A stretch of DNA of 64,000 nt from a virus: IMG/VR virus record IMGVR_UViG_3300049988_000263; one strand, written 5' to 3'. Position numbers and translations under genes: made by a program. A model generated the notes under the pieces. That model made no database searches. It was not told the DNA's origin and was given only the letters and a program-made list of their open reading frames with translations. How positions within the stretch are numbered: position 1 is the stretch's first letter; each line of letters opens with the position of its first letter. Shown here one piece after another: positions 24,651 through 42,882 of the stretch.

Positions 24651-25199
24651 AGACGATCCGGAGGTGTCTTCATCGAGGCTGAGTTCGAGGAAATCATCGT
24701 CCCCTCGATTTGGGAGGCGGAGACTTTTCTGGACAAGGTCGGCGACGAAAATCGCCGGATGATGTGGACGTTTCAGGACAAGGGCGAGCGTAACGTCTGC
24801 CTGATCCCGGAGGTTACCGGACTGTTGCAGGAGACGTGGCGGGAGGATTGGTCGAAGCGCTCCAAAACCCGCAACGTCTTCTACGTCCAGCGCTGCTACC
24901 GGTACGAGCGCCCCCAGGCGGGTCGATACCGGGAGTTCACCCAGCTTGGTATTGAGATGCTGGGGAGCCAGGACAGCACCAGGGCAAAGGCGCTCCTACG
25001 GGATTGCCTTGACCGGTTCGACGTGGAATATTCGTTCAACGAATCTGCCAAGCGCGGCCTCTCCTACTACGTGGAGGAGGGGTTCGAGGCGAGCGTGGCC
25101 AAGCTCGGCGCGCAGAAGCAGATCGCGGGTGGAGGGGCCTACGCCGAAGGTGTAGGCTGGGCCATTGGAATCGATCGATTGGTCCTGGCGAGGCAGTAA
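24590..25199 (+). CDS. hisS: Minimal histidyl-tRNA synthetase-like catalytic core with a +1 frame break near 24662
   Basis: AGGAG SD; MLRGTRII...ETIRR then, in the +1 frame, VFIEAEFEEIIVPSIWE; motif 2 YRYERPQAGRYREFTQLGIE; motif 3 GWAIGIDRL; no anticodon-binding domain. Confidence 0.8.
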
Positions 25200-29422: not shown

Positions 29423-29539
29423 GAAGTAGATGCTCAATGGTTAAAGTCCATCCCTTGGCAGGCGTCGGGACGGTCCATGAAGGACGAGCTTTGGTTACGG
29501 GGGAAACCCCATCGGGTTCGATTCCCGGCTACCTCACCA
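29423..29539 (+). ncRNA. tRNA-like RNA (117 nt)
   Basis: GAAGTAG/CTACCTC-ACCA acceptor (6/7), D-like GCTCAATGGTTAAAGT, T-arm TCGGG-TTCGATT-CCCGG; starts 5 nt after CATAAATA. Confidence 0.6.
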
Positions 29540-30185: not shown

Positions 30186-30527
30186 TTGAGCTACATTTAT
30201 GGGATGAAGCATGTCTTTGGCCTCTCGCCATTAAACGACGAATCCCAAGAATCCATGGCAATGGTCAGGGATTGCTGGCCCCATAGGGTGGCCTGCGTGA
30301 ACCCGCTCGGGGATGGCGTCAGCCCGGCCCACCAATTCTGCGTCGATCGGTATGGCCCATGTGCGAGCGTTGTCGAGTGGGCCAAGGATAAGGGACAAGC
30401 GCCCGAGCGGGTTACGCTGGATACCGATCTGACCTGGGTAAATACTGGCCGGTGCTTCTACTTTCGTAACGCCGATCAGGCGTTCGAGTTCAAGCTCGCC
30501 TGGGGACAGCCCGATTATGATTCATGA
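30186..30527 (+). CDS. FKxRW-family small protein
   Basis: WVNTGRCFYFRNADQAFEFKLAWG. Confidence 0.75.
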   Translation: MSYIYGMKHVFGLSPLNDESQESMAMVRDCWPHRVACVNPLGDGVSPAHQFCVDRYGPCASVVEWAKDKGQAPERVTLDTDLTWVNTGRCFYFRNADQAFEFKLAWGQPDYDS

Positions 30528-30807
30528 ATTCTGGATCAAACGGAAACGGAATCAATCTCGTGTTGCGGTTCGGTTCAGCAACACCATCTGGACCAACATG
30601 GTCCGGTACTCGGCGCCGTTCAGTCACGAGACCCCCGTTCACCTCTGGTGCGAGGGACAGTTTGGACCCTGCGGGAGCCTCGTCTTAGAGGATAAGCCGT
30701 TCGAGAAGGTATGGCTCGATACCGACCGTGCCTGGGTGAACACAGGAGCGTTCTTCTGCTTCAAGGACCCCAACCACGCGTTTCATTTCAAGATGGCCTG
30801 GGTATGA
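30517..30807 (+). CDS. FKxRW-family small protein
   Basis: WVNTGAFFCFKDPNHAFHFKMAWV. Confidence 0.8.
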   Translation: MIHEFWIKRKRNQSRVAVRFSNTIWTNMVRYSAPFSHETPVHLWCEGQFGPCGSLVLEDKPFEKVWLDTDRAWVNTGAFFCFKDPNHAFHFKMAWV

Positions 30808-31127
30808 TCAAAGTGGTGAACATCTCGGCTTGGGCGCGGATGTCTGAGCGAAGCCGCAAACGGGTCAACGCCAGCGATCCGAACCAACAAGTCGCCCTAC
30901 AGTGGCCCCATCGGGTCCCGCACGACCACGCGTTTCGTGATGACGGCTCCGTCGTGATGGATTGGCTGGAGGAGAATTTCGGCCCATGCGGGTCTCAGGT
31001 GTGGCAGGATGCGGATTCCGATCGTATGCTGAACATCGAGACTGACTCCGCCTGGGGCAAGGTCGGTGGCGGCTTCCACTTTCGCGACCCCGATCACGCA
31101 TTCGCGTTCAAGATGCGCTGGGGATAG
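30804..31127 (+). CDS. FKxRW-family small protein
   Basis: Ends FRDPDHAFAFKMRWG. Confidence 0.8.
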   Translation: MIKVVNISAWARMSERSRKRVNASDPNQQVALQWPHRVPHDHAFRDDGSVVMDWLEENFGPCGSQVWQDADSDRMLNIETDSAWGKVGGGFHFRDPDHAFAFKMRWG

Positions 31128-31130
31128 CCG

Positions 31131-31340
31131 ATGAAGTTCGAGTACAGCCGCAAGATCGAGGGGCAGCATCACTTCTGCTGCTTCCCCCAGGGAATGACCG
31201 CAAACGAGAATTTCGTCCGCTTCGTCACCTCTGGCCAGAAGTGGGCCGAGCGGCGTGGGGAATGCGAGCGGGCTGGGCTCTACGTCCTGCTGATCCGGGA
31301 CGACGACCTTGCCATGGAATTCCGTATGAGGTGGTGCTGA
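31131..31340 (+). CDS. FKxRW-family small protein (MKFEY subtype)
   Basis: Ends IRDDDLAMEFRMRWC. Confidence 0.8.
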   Translation: MKFEYSRKIEGQHHFCCFPQGMTANENFVRFVTSGQKWAERRGECERAGLYVLLIRDDDLAMEFRMRWC

Positions 31341-31633
31341 TGGTTAAGATGTTCGAAATTAGAGAAGTTAGAGAAGTGGATAGTCCCGGTTACAGGTTTT
31401 TTTTGAAAGAGCATTGGCCATACTGCGGCGAGATGAACGCTATTTTTTTGATAGATCAGTCTCAGAGGTATCGAGCACAAAAGTGGTGTCGCACGCGATT
31501 CGGAGATCAGGCAAACCGCGAATCAAGCGGTCAGCTTTTCTATAACACGAAGCGCTCCTGGGTTAACGTTCATACGTTTTTCCGCTTCAGAAACGAGAAT
31601 GACGCGTTCGAATTTAAGATGACCTGGGGATAA
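31340..31633 (+). CDS. FKxRW-family small protein
   Basis: Ends FRNENDAFEFKMTWG. Confidence 0.8.
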   Translation: MVKMFEIREVREVDSPGYRFFLKEHWPYCGEMNAIFLIDQSQRYRAQKWCRTRFGDQANRESSGQLFYNTKRSWVNVHTFFRFRNENDAFEFKMTWG

Positions 31634-31692
31634 TGGGAACGCATAATTTTATTATATATCGCGATGACGATTAACCGAAGGATGGCGTACAT

Positions 31693-31920
31693 ATGAGAAC
31701 AACCGAATCACCGCGAACCCTGGTCTACCTCGATCATGTGGAATTCGATTTCACCAATGACGCCGGGGTACGCTCGCGTCGATCGGTCGAATTCCATAGC
31801 TTCCAGTATCTAAACGGGACGATCCTGCTGAGCGCCTGGGACTTCGACAAGAAGGCCCAGCGATCGTTCGACGTCACCAAACTCTCGAACGTCACGGCCC
31901 AACGAGGGCCGCGCTCGTGA
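31693..31920 (+). CDS. Small WYL-like hypothetical protein
   Basis: FDFTNDAGVRSRRSVE...LLSAWDFDKKAQRSFDVTKL resembles the WYL Y....G..R.V.P...C..R...R.F pattern. Confidence 0.5.
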   Translation: MRTTESPRTLVYLDHVEFDFTNDAGVRSRRSVEFHSFQYLNGTILLSAWDFDKKAQRSFDVTKLSNVTAQRGPRS

Positions 31921-32129
31921 AGTTCGAGTACGAGCAAGAGACGCGCTACGGTAAGCACTGCTTCACCTGCTTTGGAACCGATGCGCACTCGCACGACGAA
32001 GTGATCGCGTTCGTCGATGAGGCGGCGTGCTGGGTCGGTGAACAGGGTGGCGGGATTCGCCACCACAGATATGCGATTCTCATCGACTCGGACGACCTCG
32101 CGTTCGAGTTTAAGATGCGGTGGTGCTGA
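31917..32129 (+). CDS. FKxRW-family small protein (MKFEY subtype)
   Basis: Ends IDSDDLAFEFKMRWC. Confidence 0.8.
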   Translation: MKFEYEQETRYGKHCFTCFGTDAHSHDEVIAFVDEAACWVGEQGGGIRHHRYAILIDSDDLAFEFKMRWC

Positions 32130-32380
32130 TGATCACATACGATCGACACCTTAAGAACCGGTCCGCCATGCCTCATCGATTCGAGATCAAAGAATCGTCC
32201 AAGTTGATCCTCGACGATATCGTTGCATGGTGCCAGGAACAGTTCGGGGAACCGTTCCCCGGTCCCTTTTCGGGTCGCCCCGCCAGTCCAGATGAATTGT
32301 GGTGCGGCATGTGGGGAAACGAAGTAATCTTCATCCGACACGACCGGGATGCATTTAATTTCCGCCTGCGGTGGTGTTGA
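32129..32380 (+). CDS. FKxRW-family small protein
   Basis: Ends IRHDRDAFNFRLRWC. Confidence 0.8.
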   Translation: MITYDRHLKNRSAMPHRFEIKESSKLILDDIVAWCQEQFGEPFPGPFSGRPASPDELWCGMWGNEVIFIRHDRDAFNFRLRWC

Positions 32381-32616
32381 TGCCACGCTTCACCTACGAT
32401 TTCGAGAACACAAACTACGCAAGATTCCCGCACGCGTTCTCACTCGTCGGCGAGATTGAGAATCTTCGCATCAAAGATGCCGTCCACTTCGTGACCGAAG
32501 CCGAGAAATGGTGCGCCCAAGCGTTCGGCGAGAAATCCTACTGGCGCTCCAGCATGTTCGTGCTCCGCCTGCACACGGACGACCAAGCCTTCGCATTCCG
32601 CCTGCGTTGGTGCTGA
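32380..32616 (+). CDS. FKxRW-family small protein
   Basis: Ends LHTDDQAFAFRLRWC. Confidence 0.8.
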   Translation: MPRFTYDFENTNYARFPHAFSLVGEIENLRIKDAVHFVTEAEKWCAQAFGEKSYWRSSMFVLRLHTDDQAFAFRLRWC

Positions 32617-34899: not shown

Positions 34900-35400
34900 T
34901 TACTGTCGCTTCCGCCACGCGTCTATGTAGGCCATGATCTTGGCCTCGACGAGGTGGCGGAAGCGGGAGTGCCAATATTGGTGATGATTTGGACATAGCG
35001 GGATGAGATTCCCAGGCTCGTTGTTCGAATTATCGCCATCGAGATGATGCACTTCGACGATGTTCTCTTCGTCGCAGACAACGCATCGTTTCGAATGGAA
35101 GTGAAAGCAGGTGGAGCGATACCGGGATTCTTTCCAGTTCGCAGAATCTGGTCCAGAGCGGAAATGGGTGTTTGCGCATCCGTATCCGCAAGTTGCTGAT
35201 GTCTTGTAGTTCTTTATCGGAGAATCGCAGACAATACAGGGTTTTAGATTCGACGGATTCAGGTGGCACGACGCTTCGTGTTTCTTGATGTTACCAAGAG
35301 TTCTTTCGGCAGAACAGTAGCGACAGGCTTCCTTCCGGACAGCCGCTCGGCGCGCTTTCTCAAGATTCTGGTAATGTTGTTCGGATCGATTATAAGACAT
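34900..35400 (-). CDS. HNH homing endonuclease within the tRNA cluster (antisense)
   Basis: CxxC motifs; VEVHHLDGDNSNNEPGNLIPLCPNHHQYWH. Confidence 0.9.
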   Translation of the reverse strand: MSYNRSEQHYQNLEKARRAAVRKEACRYCSAERTLGNIKKHEASCHLNPSNLKPCIVCDSPIKNYKTSATCGYGCANTHFRSGPDSANWKESRYRSTCFHFHSKRCVVCDEENIVEVHHLDGDNSNNEPGNLIPLCPNHHQYWHSRFRHLVEAKIMAYIDAWRKRQ

Positions 35401-35627: not shown

Positions 35628-35704
35628 CAGCGCGTAGCTCAGTCAGGTAGAGTATCACGTCGGGAACGTGAGGGTCGTTGGGTCGTAGCCAACCGTGCTG
35701 ACCA
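35628..35704 (+). tRNA. Atypical tRNA-Pro (GGG in the standard register)
   Basis: C1-G72, A73, CCA; anticodon loop TCGGGAA (C33, A37); T-loop GTCGTAG. Confidence 0.65.
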
Positions 35705-35750: not shown

Positions 35751-35778
35751 TTGACTTTCTTCAGTATCGGTGTATATT
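35751..35778 (+). promoter_or_regulatory. Early-type promoter
   Basis: TTGAC-N13-GGTGTATATT. Confidence 0.75.
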
Positions 35779-36264
35779 TTTGGGATCAGCGATGGAGATT
35801 TCATGTACACGAAGGACACGCTTCTCGATCTTGCCATTCAGAACCAGTCCATTCTCGACGAAATGAGACAGCAGCCGGGCACGACCTGCGACATCAGTGC
35901 CGATGCTCGGCGCGTACGTGACAAGGCCCTCGTTGCCGCCCTGTGGATGGAGCAGAACAATATCGAGGAGATCGCCCACGTCGGGGATTTCTCTTCCTTC
36001 GAACTCAAGAAGGGTCAACAGGTTCGTCTCCGTCGTGGTGCGATTATCTACAGCACGAGCCCGAGTGTCGGGCGGGGCGGAAAAGTGAATACGCTCAATC
36101 GGAAGATCAAAGTCGATTATGTCAACAGTGGGTACATTGACATTTACTCGCTCTACGGATTTAGTGATGATTCTGAAAAATCGGTCCGTAACGGGCAGGT
36201 GAATTGGGCTGGAGCCGGTGGTTACTGGTTCTGGACTGATATCAACAACGTTGAGTTCATCTAG
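35770..36264 (+). CDS. Hypothetical protein (start probably MYTKDT)
   Basis: GGAGA SD after the early promoter. Confidence 0.65.
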   Translation: MYIFGISDGDFMYTKDTLLDLAIQNQSILDEMRQQPGTTCDISADARRVRDKALVAALWMEQNNIEEIAHVGDFSSFELKKGQQVRLRRGAIIYSTSPSVGRGGKVNTLNRKIKVDYVNSGYIDIYSLYGFSDDSEKSVRNGQVNWAGAGGYWFWTDINNVEFI

Positions 36265-36267
36265 TTT

Positions 36268-36476
36268 GGGCGCGAACGCACAGAGTTCGGCGGTGCACCG
36301 GAGAAATGAAGCCGGTTTGGGTAAAACCAGAGGTGTCGGTAAGAGGATAGGGGTATCTTTCGATCCACCCTTGGGCTGTGAGGACCACGGTTCACGGGGA
36401 CACGAATTTCGAACCTGATTCCTGCCCTTCGGGGTGACGCTTTCCTTCGCGGGTTCGAATCCCGTCGCGTCCACCA
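36268..36476 (+). ncRNA. tRNA-like/tmRNA-like RNA with an Ala-type acceptor (209 nt)
   Basis: GGGCGCG/CGCGTCC with G3-U70, A73, CCA; T-arm GCGGG-TTCGAAT-CCCGT. Confidence 0.6.
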
Positions 36477-36494: not shown

Positions 36495-36737
36495 TTGATG
36501 ATTCGGTTCTTTCCGTTCAGATATGTCGGAGCCAGAAAGGAAGTATTCCCCTGGCCTTATAAGTTCGATTCGGGATTCATCGGGCCTATAGAGGCTGAAA
36601 ACGCAGGCATTTTGATTGTGCATACGTGGTGTGTCGATCAGTTCGGCGAACCCGGTCTACGCTGGGACAATCGCGAGAGTTTCTTTGGCTTCGCTAGTCA
36701 GGTGGACGCGACTGCATTCAAGATTCGGTGGGGTTGA
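36495..36737 (+). CDS. FKxRW-family small protein
   Basis: Ends FASQVDATAFKIRWG. Confidence 0.8.
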   Translation: MMIRFFPFRYVGARKEVFPWPYKFDSGFIGPIEAENAGILIVHTWCVDQFGEPGLRWDNRESFFGFASQVDATAFKIRWG

Positions 36738-40987: not shown

Positions 40988-41390
40988 CATGTCGAACCGT
41001 TACACCGCAGTCGCAAAGTTCGTTGGCGCCCGCGTCAACGTGGTGGTCACCGACACGCAGCCGATGTGCAAGGGTGACCGCACGGTCACCTCGTGGACCA
41101 CGGTTCAGAACATTGACGGCTCGAACCGGTTCATGTTGGACGGCGACGGGTGGACGTTTCTGCCCACGCACAACGAAGCGTTCATGACGGCGCTGCGCGA
41201 GGCTGCGGCACCCCTGTTCGCGCTGGAGTATACCGTGAGTGTGCGTGCGCAGACCCTGGCGAGCCTCCGCCACATGATCGTCCGTCAGATCGGCTTCGTC
41301 CGGAACGCCCCTGGTGAGGCCACCAAGGCTCATTGCGTGAAGGTGTTGCGCGAGTACCTGGGTATTCGTTCACGGCAGATGGCGGCCTGA
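40988..41390 (+). CDS. Hypothetical protein (MSNRYTAVAK)
   Basis: AGGAGA SD. Confidence 0.6.
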
Positions 41391-41620
41391 TGATGCGATA
41401 CCGAGAGGCTGGGTTTCAATGGACAGGGCGCGAAGCTTGTGCAGCCGCGTTCGTCCGCACGAACTCGGGTGAGTCCTTAGAAGAGGACATCGACGCTTTG
41501 TATGGGTTGTATGACTGGCTTGATCATAATTTTGGTTATAAGGGTTGGGATGTTGAGGGGGGAATCATTGGTGTTCGGGATTCGAACAACGCAATGATGT
41601 TTAAGATGCGCTGGTGTTAG
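41390..41620 (+). CDS. FKxRW-family small protein
   Basis: Ends VRDSNNAMMFKMRWC. Confidence 0.8.
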   Translation: MMRYREAGFQWTGREACAAAFVRTNSGESLEEDIDALYGLYDWLDHNFGYKGWDVEGGIIGVRDSNNAMMFKMRWC

Positions 41621-41635
41621 AAAGAACGCGAACCC

Positions 41636-41968
41636 ATGTACTCGATGCCCAACGACATGGTGAACGGGAAGCTCTCCGACCAGAGATTAACGGAGAACTT
41701 TCCGTTTCACGTGTATCTGAACACGGTGAAGAACGGAGCGATCTCGATGGCCATCTACGGTCCTTCGAATGAGATCGCCGAGTGGTTGGACGCAAACGGA
41801 CTCACGAAGGAATCCGGGTTGGCGGATTTTCGGAAGAACATCATTGTGCCGGAGAAAGCGCTCGCATCCCCGTTTAATCGATATGAAACACAGCCGGTCT
41901 ACTGTTTCAAGAACGAGTCGGATGCGATAGCGTTCAAGCTTCGTTGGTCTGGGACGGACGGGATATGA
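41636..41968 (+). CDS. FKxRW-family small protein
   Basis: FKNESDAIAFKLRWS plus a short tail. Confidence 0.75.
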   Translation: MYSMPNDMVNGKLSDQRLTENFPFHVYLNTVKNGAISMAIYGPSNEIAEWLDANGLTKESGLADFRKNIIVPEKALASPFNRYETQPVYCFKNESDAIAFKLRWSGTDGI

Positions 41969-42268
41969 GCGGGTTCCGCAGGCGTTTCAGGCGCCATCTC
42001 ATAATGACCACGTCCGTCTACGTATTGGCGGCGATCCTTGGCGCCGTCGCTGGCGGCGTATACGGGTACTATCAGACCGCTCCGGTGGAGACACGATGAT
42101 CAAGCTTTTCAAATTCTCGACCACGAAGAATCTTGACGAGGCAGAGGATACTGTTAATACTTTCATCTCGACTGAGAACGCTGCTGGACGACGGTGGCGG
42201 ACTGCCGGGCCGATCGTTGTGGAGAACTACACGTTCTACGTGACGTTGATCTGGGATGAATATAAATA

Positions 42269-42394
42269 GGGCACGATGCTTAGGGGTTCAATTCCCCTAC
42301 GGTCCACCATTGGGGGCCGCCCTGGATTGGGATAAAAGCTATCGGATGACGGGCCTGCGCAGCCTACGGGGTTCGAGTCCCCGCGTGTCCACCA
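42269..42394 (+). ncRNA. Nested double tRNA-like RNA (two T-arm + CCA units)
   Basis: Outer GGGCACG/CGTGTCC-ACCA; inner ACGGTCC-ACCA pairs with downstream GGGCCGC; both have G3-U70 and A73. Confidence 0.65.
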
Positions 42395-42410
42395 TCAAAC
42401 TGGAATCACC

Positions 42411-42641
42411 ATGACCTATGCTGGGGCGATCAGCCCTTACTGTTTCCGACGCGTCCCCCAGGGGTTTTCCCATCCGGTGGAGTGTGGACCGCGTACGATG
42501 CTCTCACAGGCCACCGCATGGTGCCGCCAGCACCTTTCCGAGGACCAGTGGTGGGTCTGGGCACAAACACCGCCCGCGAACGTCCTGCTGTTCCGGGACG
42601 CGACCACGGCAGATCGATTCAAGCATGCCCTGCCTGTATGA
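42411..42641 (+). CDS. Divergent FKxRW-family protein
   Basis: AWCRQHL...WW...FRDATTADRFK. Confidence 0.6.
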   Translation: MTYAGAISPYCFRRVPQGFSHPVECGPRTMLSQATAWCRQHLSEDQWWVWAQTPPANVLLFRDATTADRFKHALPV

Positions 42642-42882
42642 CCGAAACCTGTGCGACACGGCCCCAGACGAGGCCATTCGGGTGACCTTCTATCACCGGG
42701 ACGACGTGTTCACGGACATCGCCGATCAATGGCTGGCACAGTACGGCGAGGGCTTCTACGCGCCGATCATCACCGAGACGCTTGGTCTGGTCACGCTGAC
42801 CGACGCGGACGTGGATTTCTACCGAGAAATCGTTTTTACCGATCCGGACACGGCATTAGCTTTCAAGACAAGATTTTACTGA
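42625..42882 (+). CDS. FKxRW-family small protein
   Basis: Ends FTDPDTALAFKTRFY. Confidence 0.7.
   Translation: MPCLYDRNLCDTAPDEAIRVTFYHRDDVFTDIADQWLAQYGEGFYAPIITETLGLVTLTDADVDFYREIVFTDPDTALAFKTRFY

Follow-up and report, generated by a model that had tools for sequence, protein, structure and literature searches.

The species 1 and 2 RNAs of phage T4 (rnaC and rnaD), and similar stable RNAs, are non-decoding, CCA-ended products of phage tRNA arrays, and we know of no link between them and RNA-repair operons. Transfer-messenger RNA (tmRNA) contains a tRNA-like domain (TLD) without an anticodon arm, and the protein SmpB occupies the vacant space (PMC8012679). RNAs consisting of a TLD only also occur, and the one carried by phage DS6A inhibits tmRNA (PMC4131195, PMC11915505). 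YrlA, a bacterial Y RNA, is a circularly permuted tRNA mimic in which the T-arm precedes the D-arm; a loop closes its acceptor, and one of its stems binds Ro60 (PMC4201824). It is co-encoded in operons that cleaved tRNAs switch on through their regulator, RtcR, and has been proposed to act there as a competitive inhibitor, or decoy, of an anticodon nuclease (PMC7790460). Here we describe an RNA gene of 209 nucleotides (nt) with an encoded CCA, located on the + strand at 36268..36476 of a 64,000-nt stretch of viral DNA (IMG/VR virus record IMGVR_UViG_3300049988_000263), which we call the window. The RNA appears to be a new structural variant among non-decoding tRNA mimics, and we infer a function in the response to tRNA damage. 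A literature search, which did not cover two relevant reviews, found no description of this RNA family.

ARAGORN makes no call for 36268-36476, and no Rfam 15 family matches it at gathering score. The tmRNA models, which had been suggested as a check on a tmRNA-like assignment, give no match (scores of 11.8 and 14.4 bits, where 47 are required, with signal from the T-arm only). Because the single-sequence fold of the window RNA is no better than those of shuffled sequences (z -0.27), we relied on homologs to decide whether the RNA is real. In other samples, contigs match exactly the stretch from 36263/36268 to 36476/36478 and have unrelated flanks, and in one related contig U-A replaces a G-C pair of the stem at the anticodon position, a compensatory change; together these observations argue for a bounded, selected unit. 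We found ~25 distinct relatives that are about 180-255 nt long and 47-65% identical to the window copy. In an alignment of 20 sequences, 91.8% of cells are paired, and in 20 of 27 pairs both partners vary. None of 500 shuffles and no slid register reaches this level, although the result is favoured by the fact that this alignment was also the source of the structure. The window copy scores 135 bits with family model R2, whose training set includes it. Comparative analysis thereby confirms 36268-36476 as a real RNA gene. Homologs and covariation also support the proposal, made in a preliminary sequence-only reading, that the gene has alanine identity and is not an ordinary tRNA. That reading had seen no tag reading frame, and this holds in all frames and in relatives: no frame yields a stop-terminated peptide ending in Ala, and no frame is conserved in any member.

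The RNA is a cloverleaf of standard order in which a domain of 100-170 nt is inserted at the variable arm. All members have an acceptor, a D-stem of 3-5 base pairs (bp) whose loop contains GG, an anticodon-position stem of 4-7 bp, a hairpin that we call H4, the large domain, and a T-arm. In the window, where all these features lie on the + strand, the acceptor has 7 bp (36268-36274/36466-36472). Its 5' strand (36268..36274) holds G3 of the G3·U70 alanine identity pair, and its 3' strand (36466..36476) continues from U70 into A73 at 36473 and the CCA at 36474-36476. These elements and the canonical T-arm (36449..36465) are located as the sequence-only reading had placed them. The D-arm (36278..36296) has a 4-bp stem (36278-36281/36293-36296) that varies in sequence yet retains its pairing in all members; its loop, of 11 nt, contains the conserved GG. 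The 5' segment once likened to tmRNA is this loop, an ordinary tRNA D-loop with an equivalent of G18-G19. The anticodon-position arm (36297..36316), to which the compensatory change maps, consists of a 5-bp stem and a purine-rich loop of 10 nt without an anticodon; across the 20 members the loop is 10-18 nt and purine-rich, with no common triplet.

H4 (36317..36330) has a conserved GUA-A-rich loop of 6 nt and opens the variable domain; all five of its pairs show compensatory changes, and it is 95% paired. The large variable-arm domain (36330..36444) is closed by P5 (36330-36337/36436-36444), which was assigned by eye and with the help of individual folds, and encloses P6 (36345-36351/36414-36422). 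An inner arm at about 36369-36399, assigned in the same way as P5, seems dispensable, as it is missing from a short type of 188-192 nt. Hairpin P9 (36424..36435) has a UUCG tetraloop in the window copy and an 8-nt loop in most phage members.

The anticodon-position loop forms a covarying pseudoknot, PK1, with the variable-arm domain. In the window, PK1 pairs 36303..36307, inside the loop, with 36406..36410. The best complement of the loop anywhere in the interior falls at a single structural position, just 5' of the P6 3' strand, in all but one of the 20 members, and the exception is able to pair there too. Eleven distinct duplexes are represented, in which 55 of 55 positions are paired and all five pairs change on both sides. 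A partner-swap control is biased, because the strands were picked by pairing; fairer tests are the positional agreement and the retention of PK1 in two held-out members, L175 and L174 (L-numbers are labels of loci carrying, or compared with, this RNA family). A second pseudoknot, PK2, may join the H4 loop to a U-rich strand (36357..36361), with partial support. A pseudoknot between the D-loop and P9 loop, seen by eye, was dropped because the short type retains the P9 loop without a partner.

Alanyl-tRNA synthetase (AlaRS) charges its substrates without reading the anticodon. Among the 20 aligned sequences, G1-C72, G2-C71, G3·U70 and A73 are invariant, as is acceptor pair 7, and pairs 4-6 covary. 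Three of the pattern searches had G3·U70 built in, and their members are excluded from its conservation count; the pair and its companions are also present in members retrieved with patterns that did not include the acceptor. The putative alanine identity elements are thus shown to be under selection. The T-arm contains G49·U65 and G51-C63, which favour tight binding by EF-Tu.

Although the RNA shares with tmRNA (ssrA; RF00023, RF01849, RF04321) the G3·U70 pair, A73, CCA, T-arm, pseudoknots, a large domain 5' of the T-arm and the lack of a decoding anticodon, it is half as long, has a D-stem and an anticodon-position stem, and has neither tag frame nor GAC connector. TLD-only forms, such as those of DS6A and mitochondrial tmRNA, are also distinct: the DS6A type is about 65-80 nt (PMC11915505), and the present RNA, at about 180-255 nt with a D-arm and a knotted domain, is nearly three times as long. 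Like YrlA and other bacterial Y RNAs (RF02553; PMC4201824, PMC7790460), it is a tRNA mimic that occurs in phages and is encoded in RtcR-controlled rsr-rtcB operons, and YrlA is often its direct neighbour. However, it has normal tRNA order, free acceptor ends and an encoded CCA; the Ro60-binding motif occurs in only one of 20 members, where it lies inside the acceptor, and RF02553 matches only neighbouring RNAs. On these grounds we ruled out identity with YrlA or other Y RNAs. Bacterial members resemble YrlA in being encoded near rsr or rtcB, and the window copy does not. Class II tRNAs (Ser, Leu, Tyr, Sec) likewise combine full cloverleaf order with an expanded variable region, but here that region spans 100-170 nt and is multibranched, the anticodon loop is enlarged and engaged in pairing, and the identity is that of alanine. 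The RNA is non-decoding, CCA-ended and located in phage arrays, as are the T4 species 1 and 2 RNAs, and no sequence match was found between it and T4-like records in the phage collection.

Members of the family have two genomic homes, namely phage tRNA arrays and proteobacterial operons containing rtcR, rsr (which encodes Ro60), YrlA and rtcB. BLAST searches with the window RNA gave T-arm matches only, and no match in E. coli genomes. One such match, unannotated, led to a 218-nt homolog located between tRNA-Ser genes in seven cultured Brevundimonas phages. Pattern scans revealed copies in tRNA arrays of contigs of 113-608 kilobases (kb) (L010, L022, L024, L033, L034, L036, L056, L060), and the metagenomic phages carrying the RNA measure 277-608 kb. 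Two initial viral sequence patterns found nothing, most pattern matches in metagenomes and genomes were chance occurrences in coding DNA, and six candidates (L011, L035, L055, L057-L059) were rejected as ordinary tRNAs or tmRNA ends. No copy was found in phages Phosso, XacN1, CcrPW, CcrRogue and LR756511.

One array copy is bacterial (L026), residing among His, Pro, Leu and Tyr tRNA genes of Pararhizobium sp. BT-229; no copy was found in 150 relatives of Pararhizobium or in 150 sampled Alphaproteobacteria, with 15 candidates scored per genome. The L026 array (contig C3 near 200-202 kb) is chromosomal and comprises 15 tRNA genes of those four specificities only; an rtcB-like gene lies on this contig at a distance of about 70 kb, and the array is probably a mobile island. 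Several copies are altered, in some cases broken (L086, L088, L089). L086 (about 1501-1800) has a palindromic insertion of ~70 nt in its T-loop, L087:1501-1755 a short repeat expansion, and L088:1501-1662 an internal deletion that takes out the PK1 partner, and L089 is a 5' remnant.

The operon home is represented by a divergent copy in Moraxella bovis (L054), which scores 53 bits with a model built from tRNA-array members and lies 44 nt before rsr, divergent from rtcR and behind a sigma54-like promoter. Walking from rsr led to a Variovorax copy between three Y RNA-like genes and rtcB. Searches blind to context then gave copies in 7 of 300 genomes of the Variovorax family and 3 of 400 of its class; another was carried by a plasmid of Eleftheria, and further relatives were recovered. 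Three more rsr loci from Moraxellaceae had none. With a model built from array members only, operon members score 46-82 bits and ordinary tRNAs at most 35, and one locus (L091) combines motifs of the array and operon groups. Outside tRNA arrays, 13 near-full-length copies were found; each has rtcB or rsr within about 0.9 kb, and for nine of them the distance is 21-55 nt. Cultured carriers are Variovorax sp. UC74_104, Eleftheria terrae and the seven Brevundimonas phages. Four loci in Moraxellaceae and Labrys (L076, L077, L078, L080) also have three to five Y RNA-like repeats downstream of rsr, most of which score below the Rfam YrlA threshold; in one Labrys unit the acceptor strand is alanine-like.

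The RNA thus represents a structured family, so far uncatalogued, both of RtcR-controlled RNA-repair operons and of the tRNA arrays of jumbo phages, two settings in which standard annotation leaves a blank at its position. It bears on the roles of the tRNA mimics of repair operons and of non-decoding tRNA-like genes in phages.

We tentatively favour a reading, to which we assign somewhat less than an even chance, in which the RNA is an alanine-chargeable, non-decoding tRNA mimic that acts in a tRNA-damage response as a charged, cleavage-resistant decoy or as a repair partner. It would be cut from a longer transcript in the manner of a tRNA, by RNase P at G1 and trimming to the CCA, and then be charged by host AlaRS and carried by EF-Tu. 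Because no anticodon is exposed, the RNA would be unable to read codons and would offer no normal cleavage site. As a stand-in for aminoacyl-tRNA, it could bind and divert enzymes that attack tRNA, such as anticodon nucleases and toxins acting on charged or EF-Tu-bound tRNA; alternatively, it might present these toxins, or RtcB or Rsr, with a scaffold. Meanwhile, real tRNAs would undergo repair, or phage copies would take their place during infection, and protein synthesis would probably be shielded from the attack. The decoy or repair-partner role is favoured because RtcR operons respond to tRNA cleavage, a decoy function has been proposed for YrlA, and phages carry tRNA-defence genes: tRNAs, ligases and TROVE proteins of jumbo phages counter attacks on host translation and tRNA (PMC7824862), and among five carrier phages TROVE/Ro60 is encoded in three and RtcB in three.

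Several observations weigh against this reading. A decoy directed purely at anticodon nucleases would not obviously need to be charged. Alanine identity is not absolute, since L174 and L176, both beside rtcB, carry G3-C70 and G73. The phage copies do not adjoin rtcB or Ro60 genes. The RNA is an accessory of a minority of rtcB operons, because none of 76 other rtcB loci scanned (30 alphaproteobacterial and 46 other) contained it. In addition, the operon members share descent, and so the 13 operon loci do not represent 13 independent events.

A tagless, SmpB-independent form of ribosome rescue is the main alternative, although we regard it as unlikely. Here, ribosomes that have stalled because tRNA is lost or the decoding centre has been cut would accept the alanyl-RNA in their A site, with the knotted anticodon arm standing in for SmpB or for the codon-anticodon pair; the peptide would then pass to alanine and the complex would drop off. 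The selection on AlaRS and T-stem elements is as expected for such a factor, given that the two T-arm pairs noted above suit EF-Tu delivery, and the large domain exits the tRNA body at the point used by helix 2 of tmRNA and by long variable arms. To our knowledge, however, no RNA triggers release of EF-Tu without codon pairing or SmpB. The position beside rtcB resembles that of prfH, whose product is the partner of RtcB in other operons (PMC9304027), and the RNA could be a counterpart of this protein. Both PrfH and the RNA are tRNA-shaped factors encoded beside rtcB; PrfH is a protein release factor, and a common mechanism is only a hypothesis. PrfH was above cut-off in none of five bacterial carriers, but it is missing from most genomes, so that its absence from five is weak evidence. 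The carriers also mostly retain a separate tmRNA: a normal one is present in each of the five bacterial carriers examined, and a full permuted tmRNA is encoded elsewhere in two of the five carrier phages, with a partial match in a third. The loss of G3·U70 from L174 and L176 counts against rescue as well. An extended version of this idea strikes us as more doubtful again: an alanine-charged, RNA-only tagless factor, its pseudoknotted anticodon arm taking over the task of SmpB or PrfH, would act on ribosomes stalled by ribotoxin damage; bacteria would use it together with RtcB, and jumbo phages would have acquired it to sustain translation when the host destroys tRNA or rRNA. With a free end predicted to be chargeable, a fold backed by covariation and cultured carriers, the decoy and ribosome-rescue models are directly testable, and the RNA, a compact knotted tRNA of 190-230 nt, is a good target for structure determination.

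The chargeable end, the bulky domain reminiscent of protein-binding RNAs and the co-location with rsr and YrlA could also fit a non-ribosomal alanine donor, or a Y-RNA-like effector bound by Ro60, that hands alanine or a bound protein to a partner enzyme. We consider this improbable: no transferase gene is a conserved neighbour, the Ro60-binding motif of Y RNAs (PMC4201824) is missing from 19 of 20 members, and no TROVE gene was seen in two of the five carrier phages. Slightly less probable still is a cis-acting role, in which cutting of the fold by RNase P and 3' nucleases matures or stabilizes the rtcB or rsr message, or in which the fold senses damage and controls the downstream gene. The frequent location 21-55 nt before the start codon of rtcB or rsr would suit such an element. 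However, the L174 copy comes after rtcB, copies in phage arrays lie between tRNA genes with no adjoining protein gene, and neither G3·U70 nor the pseudoknot would be conserved for the sake of processing alone.

The sequence-only reading had suggested a mini-tmRNA or an SmpB sponge, and a derived tmRNA or a sponge comparable to the TLD-only RNA of DS6A (PMC4131195, PMC11915505) now seems very improbable. The alanine acceptor and T-arm, the DS6A precedent and an SmpB gene in one of the five carrier phages, which is circumstantial evidence for SmpB binding, speak for it. However, all 20 members have the D-stem and the anticodon-position stem, which fill the site of SmpB; SmpB is encoded in only that one carrier phage; no GAC connector was found in the RNA; and the carriers tested mostly have a separate tmRNA. 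Two permuted tmRNAs not annotated in GenBank were seen in phages used for comparison, one in Xanthomonas phage XacN1 (L003:1437-1857, by ARAGORN) and one in Caulobacter phage CcrRogue (L007 about 1500-1790, by eye, with a tag ending in Ala-Ala).

Least credible is an ordinary tRNA-Ala that contains an intron or is decaying, for although the 5' half is a recognizable tRNA half and L086, L088 and L089 are broken, the insert sits in the variable arm rather than the anticodon loop, the 10-18-nt loops are unrelated and no excision gives a 7-nt loop with a conserved anticodon, no group I, group II or bulge-helix-bulge (BHB) intron matches, compensatory changes extend throughout the insert, and phage Kabachok and L034 have a separate tRNA-Ala.

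The window contains 16 tRNA genes according to ARAGORN, and the RNA gene follows a block of six of these and an open reading frame (ORF) of 153 amino acids (35803..36264, +) that ends 3 nt before it. This ORF belongs to no Pfam family, is not conserved beside relatives of the RNA and has no relatives in the viral contigs; likewise, no protein was conserved adjoining the RNA across the phage loci compared. A sigma70-like promoter match upstream of the ORF (35751..35778, +), with 10 of 12 consensus positions, is a likely source of the RNA precursor. The best match of the window terminase, at 42%, is that of Sinorhizobium phage Phosso (469 kb). The sequencing runs that match the window best come from leaf metagenomes, and two of them may be its source. 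Together with the tRNA content, these matches indicate that the window most likely derives from a jumbo phage, probably with an alphaproteobacterial host. No rtcB or Ro60 gene was found within the 64-kb window.

Other RNA-like elements are present in the window. An uncalled element of 126 nt (42269-42394, +) has an acceptor with G3·U70, a T-arm, A73 and CCA, and contains a further T-arm with a CCA that ends at 42309, an arrangement resembling a nested or permuted pair; at 26-31 bits with the family models, it is not a member of the family. A T-arm, an acceptor-like strand and a CCA ending at 29539 (about 29423-29539, +) have no ARAGORN or Rfam call. ARAGORN predicts a tRNA-Pro(GGG) at 35628-35704 (+) that is below the Rfam gathering score and has an atypical T-loop. 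Among protein-coding regions, many ORFs of 70-150 amino acids ending in F-K/R-x-R-W (30186-32616, 36495-36737 and 41333-42882, +) form a large paralogous family, and the one ORF tested has no Pfam match. An HNH endonuclease-like ORF lies between tRNA-Phe and tRNA-Met (34900-35400, -). A short ORF resembling histidyl-tRNA synthetase directly follows tRNA-His (24759-25199, +), and ORFs 54-66% identical to its product occur in the RNA-carrying tRNA arrays of L010 and of Pararhizobium L026.
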